From positions 536,324-600,323 of the forward strand of contig JAUXUT010000149.1 in assembly GCA_030680695.1 (NCBI GenBank): a stretch of DNA of 64,000 nucleotides, written 5' to 3'. The position numbers and the translations under genes were made by a program. The notes beneath the pieces were generated by a model. The model did not search any database and was not told the DNA's origin. It was given only the letters and a program-made list of their open reading frames with translations. Positions 2,384 to 64,000 of the stretch are shown in pieces; position 1 is the first letter of the stretch; every line of letters begins with the position of its first letter. The stretch is from a bacterium. GTDB lineage: Bacteria > Patescibacteriota > Minisyncoccia > Phycocordibacterales > UBA6065.

Positions 2384-3490
2384 CTAAGCGGTCGAGGTTC
2401 TGCTTTTATGTATGTCATCGAGGAATTCCACGAGCATGGAAGAAAGTGGAACCGACAAGATCATGCCGAGAAGTCCGGCGAGCTCGAAACCGATGAGGAG
2501 CGAAAGAATAACGAGAATCGGTGGAACGCCAACAATTTTCTTTACGACAAGCGGATAAATGAGATGATTCTCGAACTGTTGGATGATGAGATACAATCCA
2601 GCAACAATGAGCGCGGCCGATGTACCGCCGTCAACATATCCAGCAGCAACCGCGGGGATGGCTGCAATGATCGGGCCGAATAGCGGTATCATTTCCAATA
2701 TTGCTGCGAGTACGGCAAAGAGAAGCGCATTTTTTATACCAAGCACCGTAAGGCCAAGGTACACAAGCACACCAACCACAAGGGCGAGCACAATTTGGCC
2801 TTGCATCCACAAACCAATTTTTGTTTGTGTCCTTTTCCAGAGACCGATGACGTAGACCTCGTGCTTTCGTGGTGCGACGATACGTAAGAATTTCTCTATA
2901 CCGTCTTCTTGAACGGCCAAGTAAAAAGATAGAACGATAATGAGTATGAATGAGAGGATGCCACCGAAAGCCGAGCTCGCCGAATGGACGAATCCGGCAG
3001 ACACGCTTGAAATGGCCTCGTCGATGCCTGAAACAAGACTTGAAACGGATATTCTGCCCGAGTCGGTTTGAACCGCGGCACGAGACGCTTCGATGTCATT
3101 AGACACGCTCACAGCAACCGCAGACGCACGTTCAACTTCTTCCTCGCCAAAAGGATTCCATAGAGACACACTGTTGATATAGTCGGGTACGGAGCTAAGA
3201 AACGCCGACGTGTCCCGCAACAGTGGTGGAACGAAATAATAGAAGGCGCTTACAAACATGACGCCAAGAAGGGCGTAGATAATGAGTACCGAAAATACGC
3301 GCGGTATACCGTGGCGAATAATCCATTTCGCGGCCGGCTCGACTGCCGAGGCAATAACAACAGCAGTAAGCACAACGAGTACGAGACCCTTGAGTTGGAA
3401 GAGCAAAAAGGCCATGAATATGAGGAATATGGCCTTGGCAATAGTGCCAGCGGTTATCTCGATGTTGAATGTTTTGGGCGCCTCTTGCAT
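2384..3490 (-). CDS. AI-2E family transporter (PerM/UPF0118) membrane protein
   Basis: 368 aa polytopic membrane protein with typical AI-2E arrangement of hydrophobic segments. Confidence 0.7.
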   Translation of the reverse strand: MQEAPKTFNIEITAGTIAKAIFLIFMAFLLFQLKGLVLVVLTAVVIASAVEPAAKWIIRHGIPRVFSVLIIYALLGVMFVSAFYYFVPPLLRDTSAFLSSVPDYINSVSLWNPFGEEEVERASAVAVSVSNDIEASRAAVQTDSGRISVSSLVSGIDEAISSVSAGFVHSASSAFGGILSFILIIVLSFYLAVQEDGIEKFLRIVAPRKHEVYVIGLWKRTQTKIGLWMQGQIVLALVVGVLVYLGLTVLGIKNALLFAVLAAILEMIPLFGPIIAAIPAVAAGYVDGGTSAALIVAGLYLIIQQFENHLIYPLVVKKIVGVPPILVILSLLIGFELAGLLGMILSVPLSSMLVEFLDDIHKSRTSTA

Positions 3491-3502
3491 GGGCCCATCA
3501 TA

Positions 3503-4774
3503 CTATGCGGTTAGCGCTTTTGAAACCGCAGATTTGTCGATTCCCTTCCCGATTGCGGCAAAGGTCAGTTTCTTTGGATCGAACATGAAATTAGCAACGC
3601 GTCGGACGTCGGTTGGTGTAATAGCGGCAATAATGGCGTCGATTTCTTCCGGTGTTCGTATCTTATCGGACGTTATTTCCTGCACCCCAAAGAATTCTGC
3701 CACGCTGTCGGAAGTCTCGAGGCCCATGAGCTTGCCCGCCCTCATGATTTCTTTAACCTTGGCGAGTTCATGATTTGGCACATCCTCATCACAAAGTTTT
3801 TTGGCCTCGGCCAGGATTGCCGCGGCAATTTCCGGCACACGTGAATGGGTAGTGCCAGTTGCGATAGTGAAATTTCCGAACGAGCGACGGGTCTCGTGGC
3901 TCGCCGACACGTAATATCCCGAACCCAATTCGTCACGCAGACGCACAAACAGGCGCGAACTCATTCCTCCAACCAATATGGCGCGTATGACAGATGCGAT
4001 GTATCGATCTGGGTGTGACTTATTAAAGGTTCTCCATGATACGAGAATATGGGCCTGATCAGTTTCCTTATCAAGATAAACTTCTTCTGGGCCTTCCTGT
4101 ACACGGTCGCGCGTCGCAAATTCTGGTCCAATCACCCCTTCATCGGCTTTGGCAAAAGCTTTCTCGGCCCAAGAAAGCATCTTTGTTTCCTCAACACCGC
4201 CTGCAATTATGACTGCGGTATTGGCCGCCTTATACTGGCAAGACCGATACTTTATTAAATCATCGCGCGTTATGGACGATACCGTTTCCTTGGTTCCAAT
4301 AACAGACCGCTCGGCTGGCTCTCCCTTGTACATATGAATGCGCAGGGCGTCGGCGACTTTTTCCTGGTTATCGTCGTTGTACATGTCTATTTCGCCCAAC
4401 ACGACGCCCTTCTCTTTCGCTATCTCCTTATCTGGGAATATTGAATCGAGATATATGTCAGAGACAATGTCTGCGACTTTTTCGAAATGTTTAATGTCGG
4501 CCTTCGCATAGTAAGCCGTGATTTCTTGATCGGTGAAAGCGTTGTACACCGAACCCATGTTGTCGAGCTCCGTAGATATAGCAGTCGCAGCCGGACGTTT
4601 CGTTGTGCCTTTAAAGCACATGTGTTCCAAAAAATGCGAAATACCGGACTTCTCAGGATCTTCGTAAAAACCGCCCGTGCCCACGCCGACGAAGACAGTA
4701 ACGGTAGGGTTGGCCGGCATAGGAACCGTAATCACGCGGGTGCCGTTTTTTAGGATGGTGCGAGTGTGTTTCAT
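3503..4774 (-). CDS. M16 family zinc peptidase (pitrilysin/insulinase-like)
   Basis: 423 aa; inverted zinc motif HFLEH (HxxEH) near N-terminus. Confidence 0.8.
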   Translation of the reverse strand: MKHTRTILKNGTRVITVPMPANPTVTVFVGVGTGGFYEDPEKSGISHFLEHMCFKGTTKRPAATAISTELDNMGSVYNAFTDQEITAYYAKADIKHFEKVADIVSDIYLDSIFPDKEIAKEKGVVLGEIDMYNDDNQEKVADALRIHMYKGEPAERSVIGTKETVSSITRDDLIKYRSCQYKAANTAVIIAGGVEETKMLSWAEKAFAKADEGVIGPEFATRDRVQEGPEEVYLDKETDQAHILVSWRTFNKSHPDRYIASVIRAILVGGMSSRLFVRLRDELGSGYYVSASHETRRSFGNFTIATGTTHSRVPEIAAAILAEAKKLCDEDVPNHELAKVKEIMRAGKLMGLETSDSVAEFFGVQEITSDKIRTPEEIDAIIAAITPTDVRRVANFMFDPKKLTFAAIGKGIDKSAVSKALTA

Positions 4775-4893: not shown

Positions 4894-5172
4894 TTGGATA
4901 CCCGAATTCGCGCTGTCATAAAAATGAAAAGCGTACTGTTATTCTTTCTGCTAACGCTCGCAATTTCCCCGATCGCAGAAGCTCGAGGGAGAACTTATCT
5001 TCCTGGACGCATCTCCAAGGAAAGAATCGAGCAGCAGAAAAGAGAAGCTGAGAAAGCCAAAACTTTCTTCATATACTTCTGGGGCGCAGTAATCTCCATC
5101 GGATCTTGCTGGTTCATCGCATCGGTGGCTGAATCAATCGTCAGCACACCGAAAAAAGGCCGTCCTGTGTGA
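4894..5172 (+). CDS. small hypothetical membrane/secreted protein
   Basis: 92 aa ORF with N-terminal hydrophobic segment and a second hydrophobic segment; no recognisable family. Confidence 0.25.
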   Translation: MDTRIRAVIKMKSVLLFFLLTLAISPIAEARGRTYLPGRISKERIEQQKREAEKAKTFFIYFWGAVISIGSCWFIASVAESIVSTPKKGRPV

Positions 5173-5205: not shown

Positions 5206-6561
5206 TTATCTGCCCAGCTTCTGCGCGAGATACGATACCAGGTCATCGAGCTTCACGCTTTCCTGTGCGCCGGTGTCGCGATCGCGAACGGTGACGGGTG
5301 ATCCATCCTTTTCAATAGTGGCGAAATCAACGGTGACACAGAACGGTGTGCCGATTTCATCTTGCTTGCGGTATCGCTTGCCGATTGATCCAGTGGTGTC
5401 ATATTCAACGGTGCTGCCATTTTTCGCGAACTCCTTGCGCAAAACCTGATGCAACTCCTTGGCCTTGGCCGTGAGGGCGTCTTTATTTTTTAGAAGTGGA
5501 AACACGGCGACTTTAATCGGGGCGACTGCCGGCGAAAGTTTGAGGTATTCGCGCTTCTCTCCCCCGAGCTCGTCCTGGGTATACGCCGATGTCAGCACGG
5601 CGAGCACGGTGCGGTCGACGCCGAACGACGGCTCGATGCAGTGCGGCACGAAGCGAACTTTCTTTTCCTCGTCGTAATATGACAAGTCCGTGCCGGACGC
5701 AGTGCTGTGCGCCTTGAGGTCAAAGTCGGTGCGATAAGCGAGACCGTACAACTCTGTCTTGCCAAACGGATAATCGAATTCAAAGTCGATAGTTCGTTTC
5801 GAGTAATGAGCAAGGTCACCAGGTGCGATTTCGTGCTCGTGGACCTTGTCCTGTGGTAAGCCGACGTCTTGTGTGTATGCGTGGACCTCTTTCACGAAAT
5901 GATTAAACGTCTCTTCCCAGTTTGCTGGATCAACGAAGTATTCGATCTCCATCTGCTCGAATTCGCGAGTGCGGAATATAAAGTCACGCGGAGAAATTTC
6001 GTTTCGGAATGCCTTGCCGATTTGAGCCATGCCGAACGGGAGCTTCGGGTGCATGGTATCGAGGACATTTTTAAAGTTCACGAACATGCCCTGGGCTGTT
6101 TCTGGGCGCAGATATGAAACTGATGACTCGTCCTGGGTCGCGCCAACATTAGTTTGAAACATCATGTTGAACTGACGTTCTTCGCCAAGCTTGCCACCGC
6201 ATTCTGGGCACTCCTTTTTGTCGCGGAGGGTCGCTTCGAGCTGATCGGCGCGGAATCGACGTTTGCATTTCGCGCACTCGACGAGCGGGTCAGCAAAACC
6301 ACCAACGTGTCCAGACGCCTTCCAGACATTCTGATTCATGAGAATCGCTGCATCCATGCCGTACATATCATCACGGTCATCAACGAAACGTTTCCACCAG
6401 AGCGTCTTTATGTTGTTTTTAAGAGCAACACCAAGTGGGCCATAATCCCAAGTTCCGGCAAGGCCGCCATAGATTTCTGAACCTTGGAATATGAAACCTC
6501 GCCTCTTGAGAAGAGATGAGAGGTTTTCCATGACGTCTGGCTGGGTTGGTTTATTGCTCAT
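5206..6561 (-). CDS. glyQS: glycine--tRNA ligase (dimeric, class II)
   Basis: 451 aa; conserved GlyRS N-terminus (RRGFIFQGSEIYGGLAGTWDYGPLG), class II motifs. Confidence 0.9.
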   Translation of the reverse strand: MSNKPTQPDVMENLSSLLKRRGFIFQGSEIYGGLAGTWDYGPLGVALKNNIKTLWWKRFVDDRDDMYGMDAAILMNQNVWKASGHVGGFADPLVECAKCKRRFRADQLEATLRDKKECPECGGKLGEERQFNMMFQTNVGATQDESSVSYLRPETAQGMFVNFKNVLDTMHPKLPFGMAQIGKAFRNEISPRDFIFRTREFEQMEIEYFVDPANWEETFNHFVKEVHAYTQDVGLPQDKVHEHEIAPGDLAHYSKRTIDFEFDYPFGKTELYGLAYRTDFDLKAHSTASGTDLSYYDEEKKVRFVPHCIEPSFGVDRTVLAVLTSAYTQDELGGEKREYLKLSPAVAPIKVAVFPLLKNKDALTAKAKELHQVLRKEFAKNGSTVEYDTTGSIGKRYRKQDEIGTPFCVTVDFATIEKDGSPVTVRDRDTGAQESVKLDDLVSYLAQKLGR

Positions 6562-56101: not shown

Positions 56102-56173
56102 GCTCCCGTGGTGAAATGGATATCACAACGGTCTTCGGAACCGTCGTTGGGGGTTCGAATCCCTCCGGGAGCA
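56102..56173 (+). tRNA. tRNA-Arg (anticodon TCG), no encoded CCA
   Basis: Cloverleaf: acceptor GCTCCCG/CGGGAGC, anticodon stem-loop ACGGT-CTTCGGA-ACCGT, T-arm GGGGG-TTCGAAT-CCCTC. Confidence 0.8.
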
Positions 56174-56218
56174 CAAATAGATAGTTGGGTTTTGTTTTTT
56201 CTTCGCGTTCGTGTAATA

Positions 56219-56289
56219 TTGTCCCTATGCGGGTATCGTTTAGTGGTAGGACACGTCCTTGCCAAGGATGAGGTGAGAGTTCGATTCTC
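56219..56289 (+). tRNA. tRNA-Gly (anticodon GCC), no encoded CCA
   Basis: Acceptor GCGGGTA/TACCCGC, anticodon stem-loop CGTCC-TTGCCAA-GGATG, T-arm GAGAG-TTCGATT-CTCTC. Confidence 0.85.
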
Positions 56290-56682
56290 TCTACCCGCAC
56301 AAGATCGCGATAGTTGTAATAAAGTTGTAATAAAAATGTGTAAAGGTCGTCTTCGGGCGACCTTTATGCTTATACGGCGTTTTATTAAGCTTGGTCAAAC
56401 ATCAAAATCAAGAAACTAAGATAATATAAAGCGATTTTGGATAACTGGGGATAACTCTGGGGATAGTGTTTAAAAGACAATACCCCGAATTGGCATGAAA
56501 AACACACTTTTGTCCTTAAAAGGCCTAAGTAGAGCCGTAGTTTAGGAATTTGAATTTCTCATGAATTTAACATAATGTTTCATATGAAACGTGGATAAGC
56601 CCGTTTCACGTGAAAACAGCCTTTATGCGGATTTTATTCTTTATTTAGGCTCTGTTGAGCCCTCATTTGTCATAATGGACCC

Positions 56683-57084
56683 ATGAAAACATTCACATCC
56701 AAGAGTCAGAAGTTGGGGTTGTTGGGCGAGGATATAGTCTGTAAATACCTACGGGATAGGGGATTTACTATCATAGAACGAAATTATACAAAGAAGTGGG
56801 GCGAGATCGATATCATCGTGGCAAAGGAAGGGATGATCCGTTTTATCGAGGTTAAGTCCGCGACAAGAGATCTTGGTCCAAACAATCATGTCCTTGATGC
56901 GGCAGACCTGCACAGACCAGAAGATGGGATGCATGCGGCAAAGCGTCGCAGACTATCGAGAACAATACAGACCTATATGGCTTCAATGGGGGATATTGAA
57001 TGGCATTTCGACGTCGCCTGCATACTAATAGACCCAGAACGAAGGCGAGCGAGGATAAAAATAATGGACGATATTGTGCTTTAA
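56683..57084 (+). CDS. yraN: YraN family (UPF0102) endonuclease
   Basis: 133 aa; GEDIVCKYLRDRGFTIIERNY..GEIDIIV...IRFIEVK pattern of YraN. Confidence 0.75.
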   Translation: MKTFTSKSQKLGLLGEDIVCKYLRDRGFTIIERNYTKKWGEIDIIVAKEGMIRFIEVKSATRDLGPNNHVLDAADLHRPEDGMHAAKRRRLSRTIQTYMASMGDIEWHFDVACILIDPERRRARIKIMDDIVL

Positions 57085-57143
57085 GGTGCGCGCCGATTAG
57101 ATTTTCTGGGCCCTATCTGCTAGTATGTGGGAACTGAAAAGTA

Positions 57144-57219
57144 CGGGGCGTGGTGTAACGGCTAACATGCTTGACTTGGGATCAAGTGACTCCGGGTTCG
57201 AATCCCGGCGCCCCGACCA
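57144..57219 (+). tRNA. tRNA-Pro (anticodon TGG) with genomically encoded CCA
   Basis: Acceptor CGGGGCG/CGCCCCG, anticodon stem-loop CTTGA-CTTGGGA-TCAAG, T-arm CCGGG-TTCGAAT-CCCGG, then ACCA. Confidence 0.85.
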
Positions 57220-57221
57220 TA

Positions 57222-57527
57222 ATGGAATCTGCGAAATTTACGCGGACAATAGAGGACTTCACGTGCGAGCACTGCGGCAGGGAGGTTAAAGGAAACGGCT
57301 ATACGAATCATTGCCCGGCTTGTCTTTGGTCTAAACACGTCGATATCAACCCTGGTGACAGGGCGGCGTCCTGTGGAGGCATGATGGAGCCCGTATGGGC
57401 TGGCAAGGACGGCGTTAAGAACATGATTCTGCATCGATGTGCGCTTTGCGGATACGAGCGGCGCAAGGAACTCGTCCCAGATGATGATTTTGATGTGTTT
57501 GTGCGTATATCGGCATTGGTGCGATAG
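57222..57527 (+). CDS. RNHCP domain protein
   Basis: Start at MESAKF right after tRNA-Pro; contains CEHCGREVKGNGYTNHCPACLWSKH and a second CxxC (HRCALCGYER), the RNHCP-domain signature. Confidence 0.6.
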   Translation: MESAKFTRTIEDFTCEHCGREVKGNGYTNHCPACLWSKHVDINPGDRAASCGGMMEPVWAGKDGVKNMILHRCALCGYERRKELVPDDDFDVFVRISALVR

Positions 57528-57836
57528 GGAATAGTTAGTCAAGACATGATGACGAACGAGGCATCAACGGCCCTTTGACAGTCTTTTTATGTGTTTCCTA
57601 ATGAAATTGTGACTGAAAGAAAAAACAAATAGAAGGCGAATAGAAAACGCCAAACACGACATCCTAGATATTTAGTAACCAGACACGGAATATGTCAAAC
57701 CCAAAAGCTGATTTTGACAGATCAGGCTCGTCGTTTCTCTTTTTAACTGGTGCTTACAACCGGGTGTATGCTTTCGATACGGTAGGTTGTGCGAAAGCAA
57801 CACCTGCCGCAGGCCTTATCAATTGATAACATCACT

Positions 57837-57926
57837 ATGAACAACAATCCAAATCAACCAAATCAGCCTAATAATCCGAACCAACCAAAGAAGCCAGGCC
57901 AGCAGGATGTGCCACCACAGAATTAA
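57837..57926 (+). CDS. possible 29-aa Asn/Pro/Gln-rich small peptide
   Basis: ATG...TAA ORF MNNNPNQPNQPNNPNQPKKPGQQDVPPQN followed immediately by a strong terminator; no obvious SD; coding status uncertain. Confidence 0.2.
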   Translation: MNNNPNQPNQPNNPNQPKKPGQQDVPPQN

Positions 57927-57931
57927 AACAA

Positions 57932-57968
57932 AAAGCCCTCGGCATATGCCGAGGGCTTTTGCTTTGGA
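57932..57968 (+). terminator. intrinsic terminator (AGCCCTCGGC-ATAT-GCCGAGGGCT + TTTTGCTTTGG)
   Basis: Perfect 10-bp inverted repeat followed by a T-rich tract on the plus strand. Confidence 0.7.
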
Positions 57969-58001
57969 AATGACGTGTGTTTGTGCTAGATTAGAGCAAC
58001 T

Positions 58002-58072
58002 GCGGGCGTAATTTAGTGGTAGAATGACTGCCTTCCAAGCAGTAAGTCCGGGTTCGATTCCCGGCGCCCGCA
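58002..58072 (+). tRNA. tRNA-Gly (anticodon TCC), no encoded CCA
   Basis: Acceptor GCGGGCG/CGCCCGC, anticodon stem-loop ACTGC-CTTCCAA-GCAGT, T-arm CCGGG-TTCGATT-CCCGG. Confidence 0.85.
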
Positions 58073-58100
58073 CACTTACTCAGATAATCGATCATTCCAA

Positions 58101-58687: not shown

Positions 58688-58722
58688 ACAAAAATCCCGC
58701 CATATGGCGGGATTTTTGTTTT
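58688..58722. terminator. bidirectional intrinsic terminator (AAAAATCCCGCC-ATAT-GGCGGGATTTTT)
   Basis: Perfect palindrome between the convergent TIMP-like gene (+) and hup (-). Confidence 0.7.
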
Positions 58723-58736
58723 CGAAAGAATGAGTC

Positions 58737-59009
58737 TTACTTAACTGCGTCTTTGAGAGCCTTTGCTGCGCGGAACTTAGGAACCTTCATTGCTGGGACC
58801 GAGATGGATTCACCGGTTCGAGGATTTCGAGCCTGGCGAGCCTTTCGGGTCTTTACCGAGAAGATGCCGAGACCTGCGATCGATACTTCGTCGCCCTTCT
58901 TGAGGCCGCCGACGATAGAATCGAAGACGGTGTCTACGACCTGCTCTGCCTGGACCTTGGTGGTGTTAAGAACGCCGTGTACTACTTCTACGATTGCTGC
59001 TTTGTTCAT
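58737..59009 (-). CDS. hup: HU family DNA-binding protein
   Basis: Start at MNKAAIVE; GLGIFSVKTRKARQARNPRTGESISVPAMKVPKFRAAKALKDAV matches the HU beta-arm. Confidence 0.8.
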   Translation of the reverse strand: MNKAAIVEVVHGVLNTTKVQAEQVVDTVFDSIVGGLKKGDEVSIAGLGIFSVKTRKARQARNPRTGESISVPAMKVPKFRAAKALKDAVK

Positions 59010-59190
59010 TCGTTTATGAGAGCTAACTGATAATCGACTAACATCTCGGGTCTCGAGAGGTTGTGGTCTGCAAATAAGTATATAAGAGGCCGTATTTTGC
59101 GCAAATGCTAAAAAATGGCTCTGTTGACAACTTTTACTGTAAAACAAAAATATGGCCCTGTTGAGCCGTATTTATGCCGTCGGTTTTCAA

Positions 59191-60717
59191 CTATCTGGCG
59201 AATTCTACGACGCGTGATTCTCTGATGACAGTTACCTTTATCTCTCCTGGGTACTTTAGGTCTTTCTCGATTTTTTCTGCGATCGATCGACCCATGCTCC
59301 TTGCTTCGAGGTCGTTCACTTCTTCTGGCTTCACGAAAATACGTATTTCTCGACCTGCTTGGAGTGCATATGACTTCTCTACACCCTTGAATCCTGACGC
59401 GATTGCTTCCAGTTCTTGCAGTCTCTTGATGTAATTCTCGACTGAGTCACGGCGTGCACCAGGACGAGCACCAGAAATGGCGTCGGCGGTCTGGACGATG
59501 ATTGATTCCACAGTTTCGTATGGATATTCTTCGTGGTGGGCCTGCATGGCTTTGATTATGGCCTCGTCCGTTCCGAATTTTTGCAATATTCTGCGTCCGA
59601 TTTCAACATGAGTACCCTGAACTTCGTGGTCTAGGGCCTTGCCGATGTCGTGAACGAGGGCCCCGGCCTTGGCCACGGCTACGTTAGCGCCCAGTTCCTC
59701 GGCTATCATACCGGCGATATGAGTCATTTCGATTGAGTGTTGGAGCACGTTCTGGCCGTATGAGGTCCTGAAATAGAGGCGCCCAAGGATGGCCACGATA
59801 CGCGGATCGAGATTATGGACACCTGTTTCGAATGTTGCCTGCTCGCCCTTTTCCTTTATGACCTTATTGATATCTTCACGAGCTTTCTCGACGACCTTCT
59901 CGATCTTGGCTGGCTGTATACGCCCATCAACGAGAAGCGCCTCAAGTGCCATACGAGCAATTTGTCGACGAATAGGGTCGAAAGACGAGAGGACGATGGC
60001 GCCCGGTGTGTCATCTACGATTATTTCTACACCAGTAGCGCGTTCAAAGCTCTTGATGTTACGGCCCTCCTTACCGATTATTTTCCCTTTGATTTCATCA
60101 GAAGGGAGGTGGATTGTAGTCGAGAACACATCATTCGTGACCGAATTTGCCAGACGCTGAATGGCTGTCGCAACAATTTCTTTTGCGCGTTCCTCGAGTT
60201 TATCTCCGTTCGTTGTTTCGAGCTTCCTCATACGCACAACAAGATCCTCCTCGTACTTCTTCTCGATTGTCTTTACGAGCTCATCTTTGGCGTCAGCTTC
60301 AGATATATGAGCGGCGCGTTCCAACGCAGATTTACTATCCGAGAGCATTTCGTCTGCGCGTTCCTTTATCTCGCGTATTTCCTGTGCCTTGGCTTTAAGG
60401 CTTTCTACTTCTGAATCGATGTCCGCCTGACGTTTTTCGAGCGAGTCCTCTTTTTTAATGAGGCGTTCTTCCTGGGCTTTGAGTTTATCTTCTTTTTCTT
60501 TCGCTTCCTGACGCAGTTCTTTGAGGGTCTCTGCGGCGCTTTCTTCTGCTTCAAGAAGGACTTTTTTCGCGGCCTCTTGGGCCTTGAGTTCCATCTCCTT
60601 TATCTCTATTTCGAGCGAGTTGCGTTTACGGCTCGCCACCAACACTCGTAGGTAATATCCGATACCCATTCCGCCGAGACAGGCGAGTATGAGCAGAGCG
60701 ATCACTTTCAACGACAT
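59191..60717 (-). CDS. rny: ribonuclease Y
   Basis: 508 aa; N-terminal TM, coiled coil, KH domain (IIGKEGRNIKSFERATGVEIIVDD), HD domain (HSIEMTHIAGMIAEELG...LVHDIGK). Confidence 0.9.
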   Translation of the reverse strand: MSLKVIALLILACLGGMGIGYYLRVLVASRKRNSLEIEIKEMELKAQEAAKKVLLEAEESAAETLKELRQEAKEKEDKLKAQEERLIKKEDSLEKRQADIDSEVESLKAKAQEIREIKERADEMLSDSKSALERAAHISEADAKDELVKTIEKKYEEDLVVRMRKLETTNGDKLEERAKEIVATAIQRLANSVTNDVFSTTIHLPSDEIKGKIIGKEGRNIKSFERATGVEIIVDDTPGAIVLSSFDPIRRQIARMALEALLVDGRIQPAKIEKVVEKAREDINKVIKEKGEQATFETGVHNLDPRIVAILGRLYFRTSYGQNVLQHSIEMTHIAGMIAEELGANVAVAKAGALVHDIGKALDHEVQGTHVEIGRRILQKFGTDEAIIKAMQAHHEEYPYETVESIIVQTADAISGARPGARRDSVENYIKRLQELEAIASGFKGVEKSYALQAGREIRIFVKPEEVNDLEARSMGRSIAEKIEKDLKYPGEIKVTVIRESRVVEFAR

Positions 60718-60915
60718 ATTTTTTTGTAAGGCCGACCGACGAGAAGTTCTGGATGAAAGGGGACGTGGAGCGGTTAGACGGAAGTGGGTGGTGAGGCGGG
60801 AGTGATTGTATTCAAAGAGAGCGAGAGCTCGGCGACCGAACCGGAAAATTAAATGGTAACGATTTTATACTACGATACCTATTTAATAATGGCAAGGGCC
60901 ATTTACCAGAGTTAT

Positions 60916-61494
60916 CTACAAGAGAACCTTGTCGATGATGCCGTACTTTTTCGCCTCTTCTGCATCGAGGAAAAAGTCGCGGTCGACATCCTTCTCAATC
61001 TGAGCGAGCGGCTTTCCAGTGTTATCGGCGAGAAGTTTGTTGAGACGTTCGCGCGTTTTCAGGATGTGCTTTGCGGTGATGGCAATGTCGGATGCCTGGC
61101 CCTCGATTCCTCCGAGCGGCTGATGGATCATGACCTCGGCATTTGTGAGTGCGTATCGCTTACCTTTTTTGCCGGCTGAAAGAATGACCGCGCCCATCGA
61201 TGCGGCAATGCCGACGCAAACGGTCGAGACATCGTTCTTGATGTGGTTCATCGTGTCGATGATGGCGAGTCCAGCAGTGACCGATCCACCTGGCGAGTTT
61301 ACATAAAGTGAGATTTCTTTCTTTGGGTCTTCGGACTGTAGGAAGAGAAGCTGTGCGATGACCGTGTTCGCAACATGATCGTCGATTGGGCCCGAAAGGA
61401 AAATAATATTTTCTTTAAGCAGGCGCGAGTAGATATCGTACGCGCGCTCGCCGAGACTGGTCTTTTCAATGACTGTTGGTATGAGTATGGACAT
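60916..61494 (-). CDS. clpP: ATP-dependent Clp protease proteolytic subunit
   Basis: 192 aa; catalytic Ser in GIAASMGA, His/Asp motifs, typical ClpP N-terminus. Confidence 0.9.
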
Positions 61495-61611
61495 GGCGTT
61501 TGTGGTTAGATATGCCCACGATATAGGAAATATAAGGGTTTTGCAAAGACTTGACTTTTAACTACTTAGGGTGTATAATTGATAAAGATAGTGAATCGAG
61601 CCCTTTAACAA

Positions 61612-61682
61612 TATTTGCGAAGTATAGTTGCGGAATAAAGGCTGTTTTAAGCCGAGGGGCCGACTCAAGTTGCCTTTATTCC
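61612..61682. repeat. 20-bp perfect inverted repeat (TATAGTTGCGGAATAAAGGC / GCCTTTATTCCGCAACTATA) with 29-nt spacer
   Basis: Seen directly in the sequence; lies between divergent clpP and the DGR target gene and overlaps the most upstream possible start of the target ORF. Confidence 0.7.
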
Positions 61683-61786
61683 GCAACTATATCGTTAGCC
61701 TGAAGCTGATAAGCATCCTCGGTCCCGCTTTTGCGGATACTAAGGATGACACAGTGGATGGTCCGCGTGACGTTGCGGCTACTACC

Positions 61787-62353
61787 ATGGAAAAGTGTGA
61801 AAATGCTACGACGGCCCAGTTTCTCCAGCTCGTCGCCCGGTTCGCCCAGGTTCTGCCCCTTGATGCCGACAAGGCCGAGGCGCAGAAGGCCATCGAGAAC
61901 GAAGACGATCCCTTGTGGATCGCGATCAAATCTCGGTTCACCAAGAAGGTCCAACAGGTCGTCAAAAGCCTGAAAGACATGATCGCCCTTGGCCACTACG
62001 ACTGGGTCAACTCGGACATCAACGAGAAGAACTTCGGTCTGGAGGCCCTGGTTTTGGGCGAAGGAGCCGAACTCTTCCATTTCGATCACAATATCTTTTC
62101 GGAGGATGCGATCGCAAAAATGGCAGAGAAGGGCTTCAAGCCTGGCACGCTCGGAGATCTCCTGGTCTACGGGGCCAAAAACCCCGAGGAACAGAAGAAA
62201 TACCCGATTGTGGCCTTGGGTTCCGTTGCGAGCGTCGGTGGCGAGCGCTACGTGGCTTGCCTCGACTGGAACGATTCCGAGCGCGGCCTGCGCCTCCGCT
62301 GGTTCGACGACGACTGGCGTGGCGACTGCCGGTTCCTGGCGGTTCGCAAATAA
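61787..62353 (+). CDS. DGR target protein (variable C-terminus: ...CLDWNDSERGLRLRWFDDDWRGDCRFLAVRK)
   Basis: ORF whose last 130 bp (VR) is a near-copy of the downstream template repeat, with all differences at template adenines. Start uncertain (ATG 61787 chosen; ORF track begins at 61628). Confidence 0.6.
   Translation: MEKCENATTAQFLQLVARFAQVLPLDADKAEAQKAIENEDDPLWIAIKSRFTKKVQQVVKSLKDMIALGHYDWVNSDINEKNFGLEALVLGEGAELFHFDHNIFSEDAIAKMAEKGFKPGTLGDLLVYGAKNPEEQKKYPIVALGSVASVGGERYVACLDWNDSERGLRLRWFDDDWRGDCRFLAVRK
62220..62349 (+). repeat. DGR variable region (VR)
   Basis: 130 bp, 113/130 identical to TR; all 17 mismatches are VR non-A opposite TR A; identical GC-rich 3' end (CCGGTTCCTGGCGGTTCGCAA). 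Confidence 0.85.
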
Positions 62354-62696
62354 GTTCTTCGGTGCTAGGGCTTTGGTCCTTGCACTTTGACTCTTGGACC
62401 CTTTGAAACTTTCCGAATTTATTCGGCGGGTGGAGGAGGGTCCTTTTGTTATAATAATTTACGACAGATGAAAAATCCTCGGTTACGGCTTTGGATAATC
62501 TGTCCGCAACGCCAGAAAAGAGAGTTTCCGTGGTTAAGGCTCCGGAGAGAGTTTTTCTGGTTTTGTTAAAAACAAAATTAAGAACAGTTGGTATGGAGAG
62601 CTATGCAACGAACAATGTTGCTTATACCAAAATACAGCCCCGGGAGCATTCCATGGGGAGCTCGAAGGGCAGTGGGGTAGACGGCTTCCAATACGA

Positions 62697-62826
62697 GTTC
62701 CGTTGCGAACGTCAATGGCGAGCGCAACGTGGCTTGCCTCGACAGGAACGATTCCAAGCGCAACCTGAACCTCAACTGGTTCGACAACGACTGGAATGGC
62801 AACTACCGGTTCCTGGCGGTTCGCAA
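62697..62826 (+). repeat. DGR template repeat (TR)
   Basis: Adenine-rich copy with 9 AAC/AAT codons in the VR reading frame; preceded by an in-frame TAG, so it is not an intact gene copy. Confidence 0.85.
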
Positions 62827-62847
62827 CTTTTTACATTTCTCCCGGGA

Positions 62848-63264
62848 TCATCTTTCGGGAGTTTTGTTTGCCAGCTGGCGCTTCCAGCCGCCGAGCATCC
62901 TGCCTATCTCGAAGAGGCTTTCCGATATGACGGCGTATTTGTTCGTATCAATGGCCTTCGTATCCCACGCTAACGTAACGAGGAGCTTCAGAAGGTCTAC
63001 TCTACTGATGCACCTGTTGAGCAGTATCGTCTTCTCGGCTATCTGCGAATAGCTCGCGAGAAAGCAATATTCGATCGACGAGAGGAACATGTCGTCTATC
63101 TTCGAGCCGAGGGTATATCGGCTCGCTTTCGGGAAATGGGTCAGATGATTCTGCCATATCCCATACGCATCCTTTAACTTAAGGATGACGGGAATAAGCT
63201 TTGGTTGCGAAAATTCGAGGGGGGGGGTACGCTTCGAGGTATGGGACGGGTTCAATTTACTCAT
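62848..63264 (-). CDS. avd: Avd-like four-helix-bundle protein (DGR accessory variability determinant)
   Basis: 138 aa; ..FPKASRYTLGSKIDD..S and ..FEIGRMLGGWKRQ match the four-helix-bundle/23S-rRNA-IVS protein family used by DGRs; lies between TR and RT on the opposite strand; the 5' end overlaps the RT start, so the true start may be internal. Confidence 0.6.
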   Translation of the reverse strand: MSKLNPSHTSKRTPPLEFSQPKLIPVILKLKDAYGIWQNHLTHFPKASRYTLGSKIDDMFLSSIEYCFLASYSQIAEKTILLNRCISRVDLLKLLVTLAWDTKAIDTNKYAVISESLFEIGRMLGGWKRQLANKTPER

Positions 63265-64000
63265 ACCTATAACGATATCATTTCGCTCGAGAATTTACTC
63301 GGCGCATGGAAGGAGTTCAGGAAGGGCAAGCGGAAGAAGAAGGATGTGCAGGAATTCGAGATAAGATTGACGGACAATCTCTTCGCCTTGCATCTCGAGT
63401 TAGCAGAGCGACGCTACGAACATGGAGGCTATCATGCGTTCAACATCTCTGATCCAAAGCCTCGCAATATACATAAAGCTATCGTACGCGACAGGCTCCT
63501 GCATCACGCACTGTACCGGACGCTCTACCCCTTTTTCGACAGGTCGTTTATAGCAGATTCTTATTCATGCAGGGACGGTAAAGGAACGCATAGGGCGATG
63601 ACCCGATTCATCAGTTTTGGCTGCAAGGTCTCCAAGAATAATACAAGGACATGCTGGGTTCTGAAGTGCGACGTCCGGAAATTCTTTGCGTCCATCGACC
63701 ATGAGATTCTTTTTAAAATCCTCTCAGACTTTATCGAGGACAAAGATATCTTAAATCTTTTACGAAAAGTCGTGGGAAGCTTCAGTAGCGGAAAGACAGG
63801 GACAGGTCTTCCGCTCGGCAATCTCACCTCTCAGCTCCTTGTCAATATCTATTTGAACCAATTCGATCAGTTCGTTAAGCATCGAATCAAAGCCCGTTAT
63901 TACATTCGTTACGCCGATGATTTCGTCCTGCTGTCAGACGATAGGGATTTTCTCGAATCATGCATCCCTCGCATATCAAATTTTCTCAAAGAAAACCTTA
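63241..64000 (+). CDS. DGR-type reverse transcriptase (partial, continues beyond window)
   Basis: N-terminus closely resembles Bordetella-phage bRT (ISLENLLGAWKEF.., EPKPR-like DPKPR, SYSCRDGKGTHRAM); RT motif 4 as LGNLTSQ (DGR hallmark, SQ rather than SP); motif 5 YADDFVLL. Confidence 0.85.
   Translation, partial: MGRVQFTHTYNDIISLENLLGAWKEFRKGKRKKKDVQEFEIRLTDNLFALHLELAERRYEHGGYHAFNISDPKPRNIHKAIVRDRLLHHALYRTLYPFFDRSFIADSYSCRDGKGTHRAMTRFISFGCKVSKNNTRTCWVLKCDVRKFFASIDHEILFKILSDFIEDKDILNLLRKVVGSFSSGKTGTGLPLGNLTSQLLVNIYLNQFDQFVKHRIKARYYIRYADDFVLLSDDRDFLESCIPRISNFLKENL

Follow-up and report, generated by a model that had tools for sequence, protein, structure and literature searches.

The locus under study lies at the downstream end of a 64,000-nucleotide stretch of DNA, referred to here as the window, which belongs to a small genome available as a public MAG; relatives of the locus are found in Paceibacterota, Jorgensenbacteria and other CPR. 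It begins with a target (variable protein) gene encoding 188 aa (61787-62353, + strand), the final 43 codons of which constitute a repeat, VR (62220-62349, +). The second copy of this repeat, TR (62697-62826, +), lies downstream of the gene. Next comes the accessory gene avd on the opposite strand (62848-63264, -; 138 aa), the ORF of which begins 21 nt after the TR, and finally a reverse transcriptase (RT) gene (63241-64000, +), the start of which is overlapped by avd over 24 nt. The window includes the first 253 of the 328 RT codons. The full-length RT was read from another contig (L005), which is 100% identical to the window over 5309 nt and extends it by 8.3 kb; the gene end corresponds to window-equivalent position 64227.

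A repeat search disclosed one direct repeat of 130 nt and 87% identity, connecting 62220-62349 with 62697-62826, and no further VR-like copies of the TR on either strand of the 64-kb window. Exact comparison of the two copies, which align without gaps, revealed 17 mismatches, and in each of them (17/17) an A of the TR is replaced by G, T or C in the VR. The TR contains 31 adenines in 130 nt, with nine AAC and two AAT codons in the VR frame; 17 of the 31 are altered in the VR, and the chance of all 17 falling on A is P=3e-13 (hypergeometric). With regard to the target frame, all mismatches (17/17) are located at codon positions 1 or 2. Because of this strict adenine specificity, combined with the codon-position bias, the mismatch pattern cannot be attributed to neutral divergence. 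The homology is probably two bases longer at the 5' end (62218/62695), which would give an 18th A-to-G change.

At its 3' end, the repeat terminates in a GC-rich block, CCGGTTCCTGGCGGTTCGCAA, present in exactly two copies in the 64-kb window, where none is expected. With respect to a possible distinction of IMH and IMH*, the two copies share the whole 21-nt block (62329-62349 in the VR, +) without a difference and diverge from the third base of the last codon onward (AAA in the VR, AAC in the TR). The same 3' limit of homology characterizes the related loci, and the block is a plausible, sequence-based candidate for the IMH. The first-pass annotation had described the 130-bp repeat at 87% identity, mismatches with A exclusively in the downstream copy, a TR rich in AAC/AAT codons and a shared, unmutated GC-rich 3' end. 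All these features were borne out by the repeat search and exact alignment, and the amino acid changes listed for the VR were correct on recheck. In diversity-generating retroelements (DGRs) in general, an RNA containing the TR is made and copied by the RT and Avd with random bases opposite template adenines, and the resulting cDNA replaces the VR.

The target gene is preceded by a putative promoter detected in a consensus scan (TTGACT-17-TATAAT, 11/12 matches; 61551-61579, +), and the same promoter-like box is located upstream of the target in the closest relative (L002). A perfect 20 bp inverted repeat with a 29-nt loop (61623-61691, +) was found by repeat search in what is presumably the 5' UTR of the target transcript; its homologue in L002 occupies the same place and has 24-nt arms of changed sequence. 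The GTG at 61754, which is associated with an AAGGA Shine-Dalgarno-like motif, was considered as an alternative start and rejected because this codon is GTC in L002, though the flanking nucleotides are conserved. Downstream of the gene, inspection and DNA folding indicated a possible terminator of the target mRNA, composed of a GGACCC...GGGTCC stem, an inner hairpin and TTTTGTT (62396-62449, +). It is weak in the window and absent from the list of the terminator scan; relatives carry clear GC hairpins with T-runs at this position.

The protein consists of a helical N-terminal part and a C-type-lectin-like C-terminal domain (approximately residues 60-188). Its predicted structure is a divergent C-type-lectin fold, and the model supports a display of the VR on this fold. 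A Foldseek comparison of the target with known structures gave no significant match, and PDB sequence searches with the target and Avd returned nothing meaningful. The sole match in a scan of genome contigs was irrelevant (19 residues, L001). In the metagenome scan, the target family comprises at least 258 relatives of about 190 aa, and a 241-aa ORF version of the target (P0044) is located on contig L005. The target was initially described as small (~190 aa) and without an obvious signal peptide, and this description holds: the protein has 188 aa and lacks a signal peptide, a transmembrane segment and any Pfam domain, as is typical of DGR targets in CPR. The family is abundant, unannotated, of predicted lectin fold and devoid of an export signal, which would point to an intracellular ligand as the object of diversification in CPR.

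A structured RNA element of about 215 nt was delimited directly 5' of the TR (62477-62696, +) by RNAalifold on 26 related loci. Its modules on the + strand are helices P1 (62477-62494) and P2 (62525-62548), an A-rich strand (~62564-62584), an invariant TTGG (62588-62591) and a three-way junction in which P3 (62591-62602/62683-62694) encloses P4 (62605-62621) and P5 (62637-62670). A covariance model of the element, R1, matches the window at 62572-62696 (66 bits, E 9e-13) and at no other position, with a score among the lowest of its matches. In front of the element, an extended -10-like box, TGTTATAAT (62447-62455, +), is a candidate promoter of the TR RNA, and a box of this kind lies ~25-30 nt before P1 in most related loci. 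Beyond the TR, the terminator scan located a GC-rich hairpin (9 bp, 5-nt loop) followed by a U-tract on the TR strand (62839-62869, +; stem-loop 62839-62861), overlapping the 3' end of the convergent avd. A hairpin and U-tract are found 10-16 nt past the TR in 21-23 of the 26 related loci, with stems of different sequence. Together, the 5' element and the 3' hairpin with its U-tract suggest, as judged from sequence comparison, a self-contained DGR RNA of ~400 nt.

In most relatives, the two sides of the TR are also connected by a predicted long-range helix, formed by the A-rich strand ~150 nt upstream and a U-rich stretch just 3' of the TR. This helix is well supported in most relatives; in the subclade of the window (L005, L002 and L066) support for it is poor, and 5-7 of its 11 pairs are in register. 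When RNA duplexes joining the upstream region to the 3' flank were searched for blindly, the hairpin arm dominated and the noise was too high for a signal, and the helix was for this reason tested in register on the alignment. An alternative 8-bp pairing, of 62564-62572 with 62828-62835, can be drawn as a candidate. Searches in Rfam, with either the gathering or a permissive E-value threshold, did not assign any part of the locus to a family.

Directly past the stop codon of the target, a degenerate array with a period of 8 nt and CTTGG/CTTYG motifs (62354-62425, +) was revealed by lag-8 autocorrelation, as the highest value in the whole 64-kb window. TRF did not detect this array because it is too degenerate. 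Over 32 DGR-linked targets taken together, the post-stop periodicity gives z=13.6 at lag 8 and z=8.6 at lag 16, and it is also present after unrelated target genes. It is absent after the TR, and none was found elsewhere in ~370 kb of the loci or in the window. Clusters of exact CTTGG occur in the loci only at the post-target position. The idea that the array pairs or co-varies with the ACUUGG that is invariant in the RNA element was considered and rejected, since both are in the same sense, and since in one locus (L052) the array is of CTGG type, yet the RNA keeps CTTGG. The array can be viewed as a testable candidate for a target-side signal of cDNA integration.

Adenine-specific change is also seen in the relatives. 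The TR and VR of 26 related loci have 530 mismatches in all, of which 496 fall on TR adenines, and most of the others are found where the homology ends on the 3' side. A pair of natural alleles (L094 and L095) shows 31 differences in 6.5 kb, 18 of them in the VR and all of these (18/18) at TR adenines. In addition, the VR is all that distinguishes several of the 90%-identity protein clusters. The DGR in the window may still be active, although the only other assembly with this locus (L005, with P0044) carries an identical VR. This identity is what would be observed if the element were a fixed relic, once active, in which the VR keeps the footprint of past retrohoming and the gene is no longer diversified. 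The weakness of the long-range helix in the subclade, the low R1 score and the existence of decayed relatives, such as L009 which retains only an RT fragment, are in line with such a fate. However, the two assemblies may represent one population, and the parts of the element are intact: the RT is of full length with YADD, avd is of full length, the TR preserves its 31 adenines in AAY-rich codons, and in the window most pairs of P2, P3 and P5 can form. Furthermore, non-A mismatches between TR and VR, expected to accumulate after inactivation, are entirely missing. We consequently regard the relic as unlikely.

The RNA element and the 8-nt array could, as another alternative, be unconnected with the DGR machinery, either as leader and trailer sequences kept by recent ancestry or as ordinary terminators and promoters. 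The loci are indeed related, so that controls by shuffling overstate the significance of the RNA element; its 3' hairpin with the U-tract resembles a plain intrinsic terminator, and no partner of the array, or protein that binds it, has been demonstrated. Against this, slid-partner controls, which preserve the relatedness of the loci, reduce the fraction of paired cells in the 26 loci from 90.8% to 39-49% and the covariation score from 0.646 to 0.12-0.18, and 43 of the 50 pairs have changes on both sides. R1 also recovers the element in loci on which it was not trained, including DGRs with three other, sequence-unrelated target families. A TR-adjacent element was found in every RT-fetched locus tested, whatever its target family, and it was not found near orphan target genes. 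As the periodicity, too, follows unrelated targets and is confined to this position in the loci and the window, we consider it quite improbable that the two features are extraneous to the DGR.

The protein-coding modules of the cassette can be assigned to DGR families. Avd is recognized by the Pfam model PF22296 bAvd with 46.8 bits (cut-off 40), while the NCBIfam model DivGenRetAVD gives E 9e-18 and 64.5 bits, below its curated cut-off of 80; the protein is 77% identical over its full length to Avd of L002. The RT, a Pfam RVT_1 protein, has more than 8000 close homologues and shares 63-84% identity with thousands of CPR RTs. Its best PDB match is the Bordetella phage bRT (8ub7_A, E 1.8e-38), with the next RT at E 1.8e-17, and it carries the motifs LGNLTSQ and YADD. 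The class of the RT was assigned by its best solved homologue and by the motifs [ILV]GxxxSQ and YxDD. An Avd-like ORF on the opposite strand 21 bp past the TR, and a DGR-type RT with these two motifs starting from 63241, had both been proposed in the first-pass annotation, and the Pfam and PDB searches agree with the two assignments.

Models of other RT classes also align with this protein, all below their curated cut-offs. The top-scoring NCBIfam model for the RT fragment is that of the group II intron RT/maturase (TIGR04416, 117.5 bits versus 300); further scores are those of the Drt3a (69/200), retron (54/235) and Drt2 (49/390) models, and PADLOC reported generic and DRT RT models for the RT and no match for the neighbouring proteins. 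These hits might imply that the repeat arose simply by duplication or gene conversion and lies beside a retroelement unrelated to it, such as a group II intron, a retron or a defence RT. This is nonetheless extremely improbable in view of the unreached cut-offs, the absence of any group II intron or other Rfam RNA family at the locus, the strict TR-adenine specificity and codon-position bias, the presence of Avd and the DGR origin of the best solved RT homologue.

We thus interpret the locus, with high confidence, as a complete chromosomal DGR of the CPR/Patescibacteria type, in the order target, TR, opposite-strand avd and RT, which diversifies a small, cytoplasmic-looking protein. The positions and strands of TR, avd and RT correspond to architecture B3, 'TR-(avd)-RT', to which 90% of the DGRs in CPR belong (Wu et al. 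2018, PMC5758913); the same survey distinguishes the unclassified VR groups UVR1-6. The divergent and overlapping arrangement of avd and RT, initially considered unusual, is accordingly the norm in CPR, and the layout is present in all ~27 related loci that carry the cassette. Roux et al. 2021 (PMC8144416) describe the targets of 'clade 2' of CPR DGRs as typically small and lacking both a signal peptide and a known domain. DGRs of these two descriptions (Wu B3, Roux clade 2) have the same gene order and strands as the element in the window, are likewise cellular and chromosomal in hosts with small genomes, and have targets without signal peptide, transmembrane segment or Pfam domain; no essential difference was noticed. 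The element is therefore real and ordinary for its host group, given the prevalence of B3 and of small domain-less targets. As a DGR, it adds little, since the layout and the domain-less target are already known in CPR and the sequence is already public. A lagging-strand preference has been reported for DGRs (PMC12875486); in the window, the GC skew is not strong enough to show how replication runs relative to the target.

CPR is the bacterial group richest in DGRs, which are very common there, and the first survey of DGRs in CPR/Patescibacteria is reportedly that of Paul et al. 2017. At the present locus, a transcript containing the TR would be made first, probably as a self-contained RNA of ~400 nt (from ~62462 to ~62869) that starts from an extended -10 promoter of its own and ends with the hairpin and U-tract. 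The RT with Avd would then reverse-transcribe the TR, placing random bases opposite template adenines, and the cDNA would take the place of the homologous VR, the 3'-terminal part of the target gene, leaving the TR unchanged. With 20 A-containing codons, mostly AAC/AAT, this process could generate up to ~10^18 protein variants. The scaffold for protein binding (P1, P2 and the three-way junction) would be located on the 5' side of the TR, whereas that of the Bordetella phage lies 3' of it, and the long-range helix that in most relatives joins the ends of the TR could have a role like that of the avd:Sp and TR:Sp duplexes of the phage. We infer from the sequence pattern the ends of the TR transcript, the priming site and expression of the RT from behind the terminator-like hairpin. 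Candidates for the nucleotide that primes cDNA synthesis lie in the invariant UAC-UUGG linker (62585-62591).

On this basis, we tentatively propose, at somewhat less than even confidence, that a large clade of CPR RTs uses a template RNA rearranged in comparison with the Bordetella phage, namely a self-contained ~400-nt RNA with its own promoter and terminator, an RT/Avd-binding scaffold (P1, P2 and three-way junction) 5' of the TR and the TR looped by the long-range helix, and that its targets are marked by the 8-nt CTTGG-like array after the stop codon. No description of the 5' RNA element or of the array was found in the DGR literature within the reach of our search, which extended neither to the supplement of Wu et al. 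nor to Paul et al. 2017. If both are functional and previously undescribed, they define what the priming and homing of cDNA require in cis in the bacterial lineage richest in DGRs, and the predicted ~400-nt RNA with its defined ends would be a compact substrate for in vitro reconstitution of a CPR DGR.

Comparison with the DGR of Bordetella phage BPP-1 (mtd-avd-TR-brt) puts these features into perspective. The two systems have in common adenine-specific transfer from TR to VR, homologous RTs, an Avd, a C-terminal VR in a C-type-lectin fold with a GC-rich, IMH-like end, and a stem-loop just 3' of the TR. The position of the hairpin in the window matches that of the Avd-binding stem-loop described just downstream of the TR by Handa et al. 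(10.1101/2023.10.23.563531), who also determined the bRT-Avd-RNA structure (PDB 8ub7). In BPP-1, sequences on either side of the TR form a duplex, and one is likewise predicted in most relatives of the locus. In contrast to the phage, avd is located here between TR and RT in reverse orientation, and the element is cellular and not phage-borne. A structured spacer of ~140 nt that wraps the RT is found 3' of the TR in BPP-1, whereas here ~45 nt follow the TR before the U-tract, and the large structured RNA is on the 5' side. In addition, the VR of BPP-1 is followed by a GC-rich cruciform; here there is no GC-rich inverted repeat directly after the VR, but the 8-nt array instead.

Among the closest known systems are also compact DGR variable proteins with a C-type-lectin fold, Treponema TvpA (PDB 2y3c) and nanoarchaeal AvpA (PMC5006420). 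The msr-msd RNA of retrons offers a topological analogy only, as it also combines a structured RNA 5' of the template with a long-range helix that brackets the unit. It differs from the DGR in the window in that the RT described here scores below the cut-offs of retron models, in that neither multicopy ssDNA nor a branching G is in evidence, and in that its template is a repeat which codes for protein and has a cognate VR.

The locus is, with high confidence, a complete diversity-generating retroelement (DGR), correctly identified in the first-pass annotation. Repeat search and base-by-base comparison reproduced exactly the coordinates and mismatch counts given there for the variable region (VR, 62220-62349) and the template region (TR, 62697-62826), which make up the sole long direct repeat in 60000-64000 (130 nt, 87% identity). 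Adenine-specific substitution from TR to VR was also borne out by the base-by-base comparison, as TR has A at all 17 mismatched positions, where VR has G, T or C. Of the 130 bases of TR, 31 are adenines, and the probability that 17 random mismatches all hit adenines is 3e-13. In the frame of the ORF ending at 62353, each of the 17 is located in codon position 1 or 2. Homology probably reaches two more bases in the 5' direction, which would give an 18th change, from A to G; on the 3' side it stops at the third and final base of the last codon, which reads AAA in the gene and AAC in the template. The GC-rich block CCGGTTCCTGGCGGTTCGCAA, common to VR and TR, occurs only at these two sites within the window, and a search of both strands of the window revealed no additional VR-like copies of TR. 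Read in the VR frame, TR comprises 9 AAC and 2 AAT codons, and its 20 A-containing codons in all leave room for about 10^18 protein variants.

Both proteins proposed to accompany the repeats were recovered. The minus-strand ORF 62848-63264 (avd) matches Pfam bAvd with 46.8 bits against a curated cut-off of 40, and NCBIfam DivGenRetAVD with an E-value of 9e-18, below the cut-off of that model. The plus-strand ORF starting at 63241 is a reverse transcriptase (RT) with the reported LGNLTSQ and YADD motifs; its full length is 328 aa, the remainder of the gene being taken from Logan contig L005, which is 100% identical to window 58692-64000. Among solved structures, the top match is the DGR RT of the Bordetella phage, as present in the bRT-Avd-RNA complex (8ub7_A, E 1.8e-38), followed by group II-like and group II intron RTs at around 1e-17, while group II, retron and DRT models all scored far under their cut-offs. 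RT homologues number more than 8000, and the best 120 of them are 63-84% identical and named from many phyla of Patescibacteria (CPR). A 160-aa plus-strand ORF spanning the template, the RNA element in front of it and the hairpin behind it (62491-62973, L005 3800-4282) carries a gene call in the Logan assembly, while the true avd on the opposite strand was left uncalled. This ORF is spurious, arising from the protein-derived TR.

The cassette, composed of TR, avd and RT, has a chromosomal setting without phage genes in the flanking L005 sequence, where rsmE, trigger factor, pyrophosphatase and nusA are located downstream. On the other side, four tRNA genes lie within 2 kb (Arg-TCG, Gly-GCC, Pro-TGG and Gly-TCC; 56102-58073); next, immediately ahead of the DGR, are the genes of an HU-like protein, RNase Y and ClpP, an ordinary housekeeping context. 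A DGR of the same RT clade in L088 (JGI Ga0673071_0000023, 172-183 kb) is found amid genes for a phage-type integrase, a TrwB-like coupling protein, ArdC and HTH proteins, which suggests that some members of the clade ride on integrative or conjugative elements.

The orientation of avd and RT had been regarded as unusual, a view that does not hold for this lineage. The order target(+), TR(+), avd(-), RT(+) was observed in every cassette-bearing related locus (about 27 of 85), and the divergent, slightly overlapping starts of avd and RT are seen again in relatives. Wu et al. 2018 designate this layout architecture B3, TR-(avd)-RT, and assign 90% of CPR DGRs to it (PMC5758913). In the survey of Roux et al. 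2021, "clade 2" DGRs are cellular and restricted to Patescibacteria, with targets typically devoid of transmembrane or other recognisable domains (PMC8144416). This DGR is representative of the CPR group, where the traits flagged as unusual are the norm, and its sequence is already public. As a DGR, the locus adds modestly; the conserved RNA element 5' of TR and the periodic array behind the VR, both described below, merit separate follow-up, although earlier descriptions may exist in the literature on CPR DGRs (Paul et al. 2017, Wu et al. supplement).

At this locus, the two available assemblies carry an identical VR. Across 26 loci, 496 of the 530 mismatches between TR and VR fall on TR adenines, the exceptions being mostly the boundary base, and several protein clusters of 90% identity have members that vary in VR only. 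L094 and L095 represent the same genomic neighbourhood in two samples and differ at 31 of 6561 positions. The 134-nt VR accommodates 18 of these differences, all 18 at TR-adenine positions. These sequence comparisons provide clear evidence of activity in the family among relatives of the DGR studied here. In the same two loci (target 3001-3561, RT 3633-4547 and TR 5034-5167, the latter two on the minus strand), as well as in L081, the TR-avd-RT module is inverted relative to the target, indicating that its orientation toward the target is flexible. The DGR of L094 and L095 is flanked by ribosomal protein genes on one side and by a ParE/Phd toxin-antitoxin pair on the other.

The 343-nt spacer between gene and TR is not random. 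In the 26-locus alignment, ~215 nt directly 5' of TR are strongly conserved, corresponding to a covarying structured RNA element at 62477-62696. RNAalifold predicts that it forms two hairpins (P1, P2) and a three-way junction made of P3 with P4 and P5 inside it. Including a proposed long-range helix, the structure has 50 pairs with 90.8% of cells paired over the 26 loci, compared to 39-49% in controls in which the 3' partner was slid by 1-3 columns and relatedness was kept. The covariation score is 0.646 (0.12-0.18 in the slid controls), with changes on both sides in 43 of the 50 pairs. The long-range helix would join a AAUAAAGA-like sequence ~150 nt upstream of TR with UCUUUAUU directly 3' of TR. 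Covariation is seen between its strands, for example AAUGAAGC with GCUUCAUU and AAUAACAA with UUGUUAUU, and the helix extends to 13 bp in L084; it is weak in the subclade to which the window belongs (5-7 of 11 pairs), and in the window 62564-62572 could instead pair with 62828-62835.

A covariance model of the junction core (R1, 108 positions) has a single match in the window, at 62572-62696 (66 bits, E 9e-13). Further matches are to family loci outside the model's training set and, with 64-102 bits, to loci fetched solely by RT homology, with other target families: L086/87 (Jorgensenbacteria), L088, L089/90, L091, L092 and L093. The element is found in every fetched DGR of this RT clade, across target families; Rfam 15 contains no family matching it. 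In L009 (3657-4014) the element is still found (78 bits) next to only a C-terminal RT fragment (residues 271-326), with avd absent, and the locus looks like a decayed cassette. Some target homologues are "orphans" (L013, L032, L050, L061, L063, L064/L067, L070, L074, L076, L078/L082 and L083), whose retrieved flanks (up to 5 kb) lack RT, avd, TR, the RNA element and any R1 match. Such genes may be former targets, or may be served at a distance by a DGR located elsewhere in the genome.

In 21-23 of 26 loci, TR is followed at a distance of 10-16 nt by a GC-rich hairpin and then a U-rich tract, the stems differing in sequence; in the window it corresponds to 62839-62861 plus TTTTGTTT, listed as terminator-like in the scan. 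Most loci also have a -10-like box, often TGnTATAAT, ~25-30 nt before P1, here TGTTATAAT at 62447-62455, a putative promoter of the TR RNA. From these signals we infer a discrete transcript of ~400 nt.

The Bordetella phage RNA, as described by Handa et al. (bioRxiv 10.1101/2023.10.23.563531), consists of a short upstream avd strand, TR and a ~140-nt downstream spacer. Features of this spacer are a stem-loop immediately behind TR that binds Avd, the priming adenosine, elements bound by RT and a strand that base-pairs with the upstream segment. Similar stem-loops and upstream/downstream duplexes were reported in 207 of 278 DGRs, CPR ones included, in a survey limited to the 40 nt before and the 100 nt after TR (10.1101/2023.10.23.563531). 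The 3' hairpin found here fits the Avd-binding stem-loop, and the long-range helix fits the bracketing duplex. In contrast to the phage, most structured RNA lies 5' of TR, outside that 40-nt range, and the 3' side appears to stop ~45 nt after TR. A further difference is that the GC-rich inverted repeat following the VR is replaced by an 8-nt periodic array. In functional terms, the RNA looks like a rearranged version of the Bordetella principle, in which the long-range helix and P3 would bring both TR ends to one junction, beside an invariant unpaired UAC-UUGG linker.

The array, a degenerate CTTGG/CTTYG motif repeated every 8 nt, occupies ~70 nt directly after the target stop codon (62354-62425), and 62357-62420 is the most 8-periodic stretch in the 64 kb window. 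The 4-mers CCTT, CTTG and TTGG are 6-7 fold enriched in the post-stop stretch, with 8 as their most frequent spacing. Over 32 DGR-linked targets, autocorrelation exceeds shuffles by 13.6 sd at lag 8 and 8.6 sd at lag 16, and the same analysis gave no signal of 8-nt periodicity after TR. Exact CTTGG clusters are confined to this post-stop position across all loci. The array also follows the four unrelated target genes among DGR-linked targets (loci L002-L093), and most orphan members of the target family keep it. The five family loci without the array and with at least 2.2 kb of downstream sequence likewise have no cassette nearby. The two readings considered most likely are a target-side homing signal and a protein-binding site in the 3' UTR.

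The target (61787-62353, 188 aa) has an exact counterpart in NCBI MDP1625399.1, annotated as a "hypothetical protein" on a 649-kb MAG contig; homologues were found in Paceibacterota, Harrisonbacteria and other Patescibacteria. No match was found in Pfam, NCBIfam or PDB sequences. Homologues of ~190 aa share a conserved C-terminal region of ~125 aa ending in PIVALGS-[VR]-CRFLAVRK, and their N-termini are variable. The AlphaFold model (47 sequences) is confident, with pLDDT 87 overall and >93 for residues 60-188. Foldseek top matches were CTLDs, none of them significant; the modelled domain is predicted to adopt a compact and divergent lectin fold. In agreement with the first-pass annotation, inspection shows no signal peptide, since the N-terminus, MEKCENATTAQFLQLVARF..., lacks hydrophobic character. 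The target mRNA has a perfect 20-bp hairpin (61623-61691) in its presumed 5' UTR, preceded by a putative, near-consensus promoter (61551-61579). The closest relative, L002, has a homologous hairpin with 24-nt arms and changed sequence (5854-5905); behind it come the conserved CGTTAGCCTGAAGCTGATAAGC and a further small, compensatory hairpin, and this region may be a regulatory leader.
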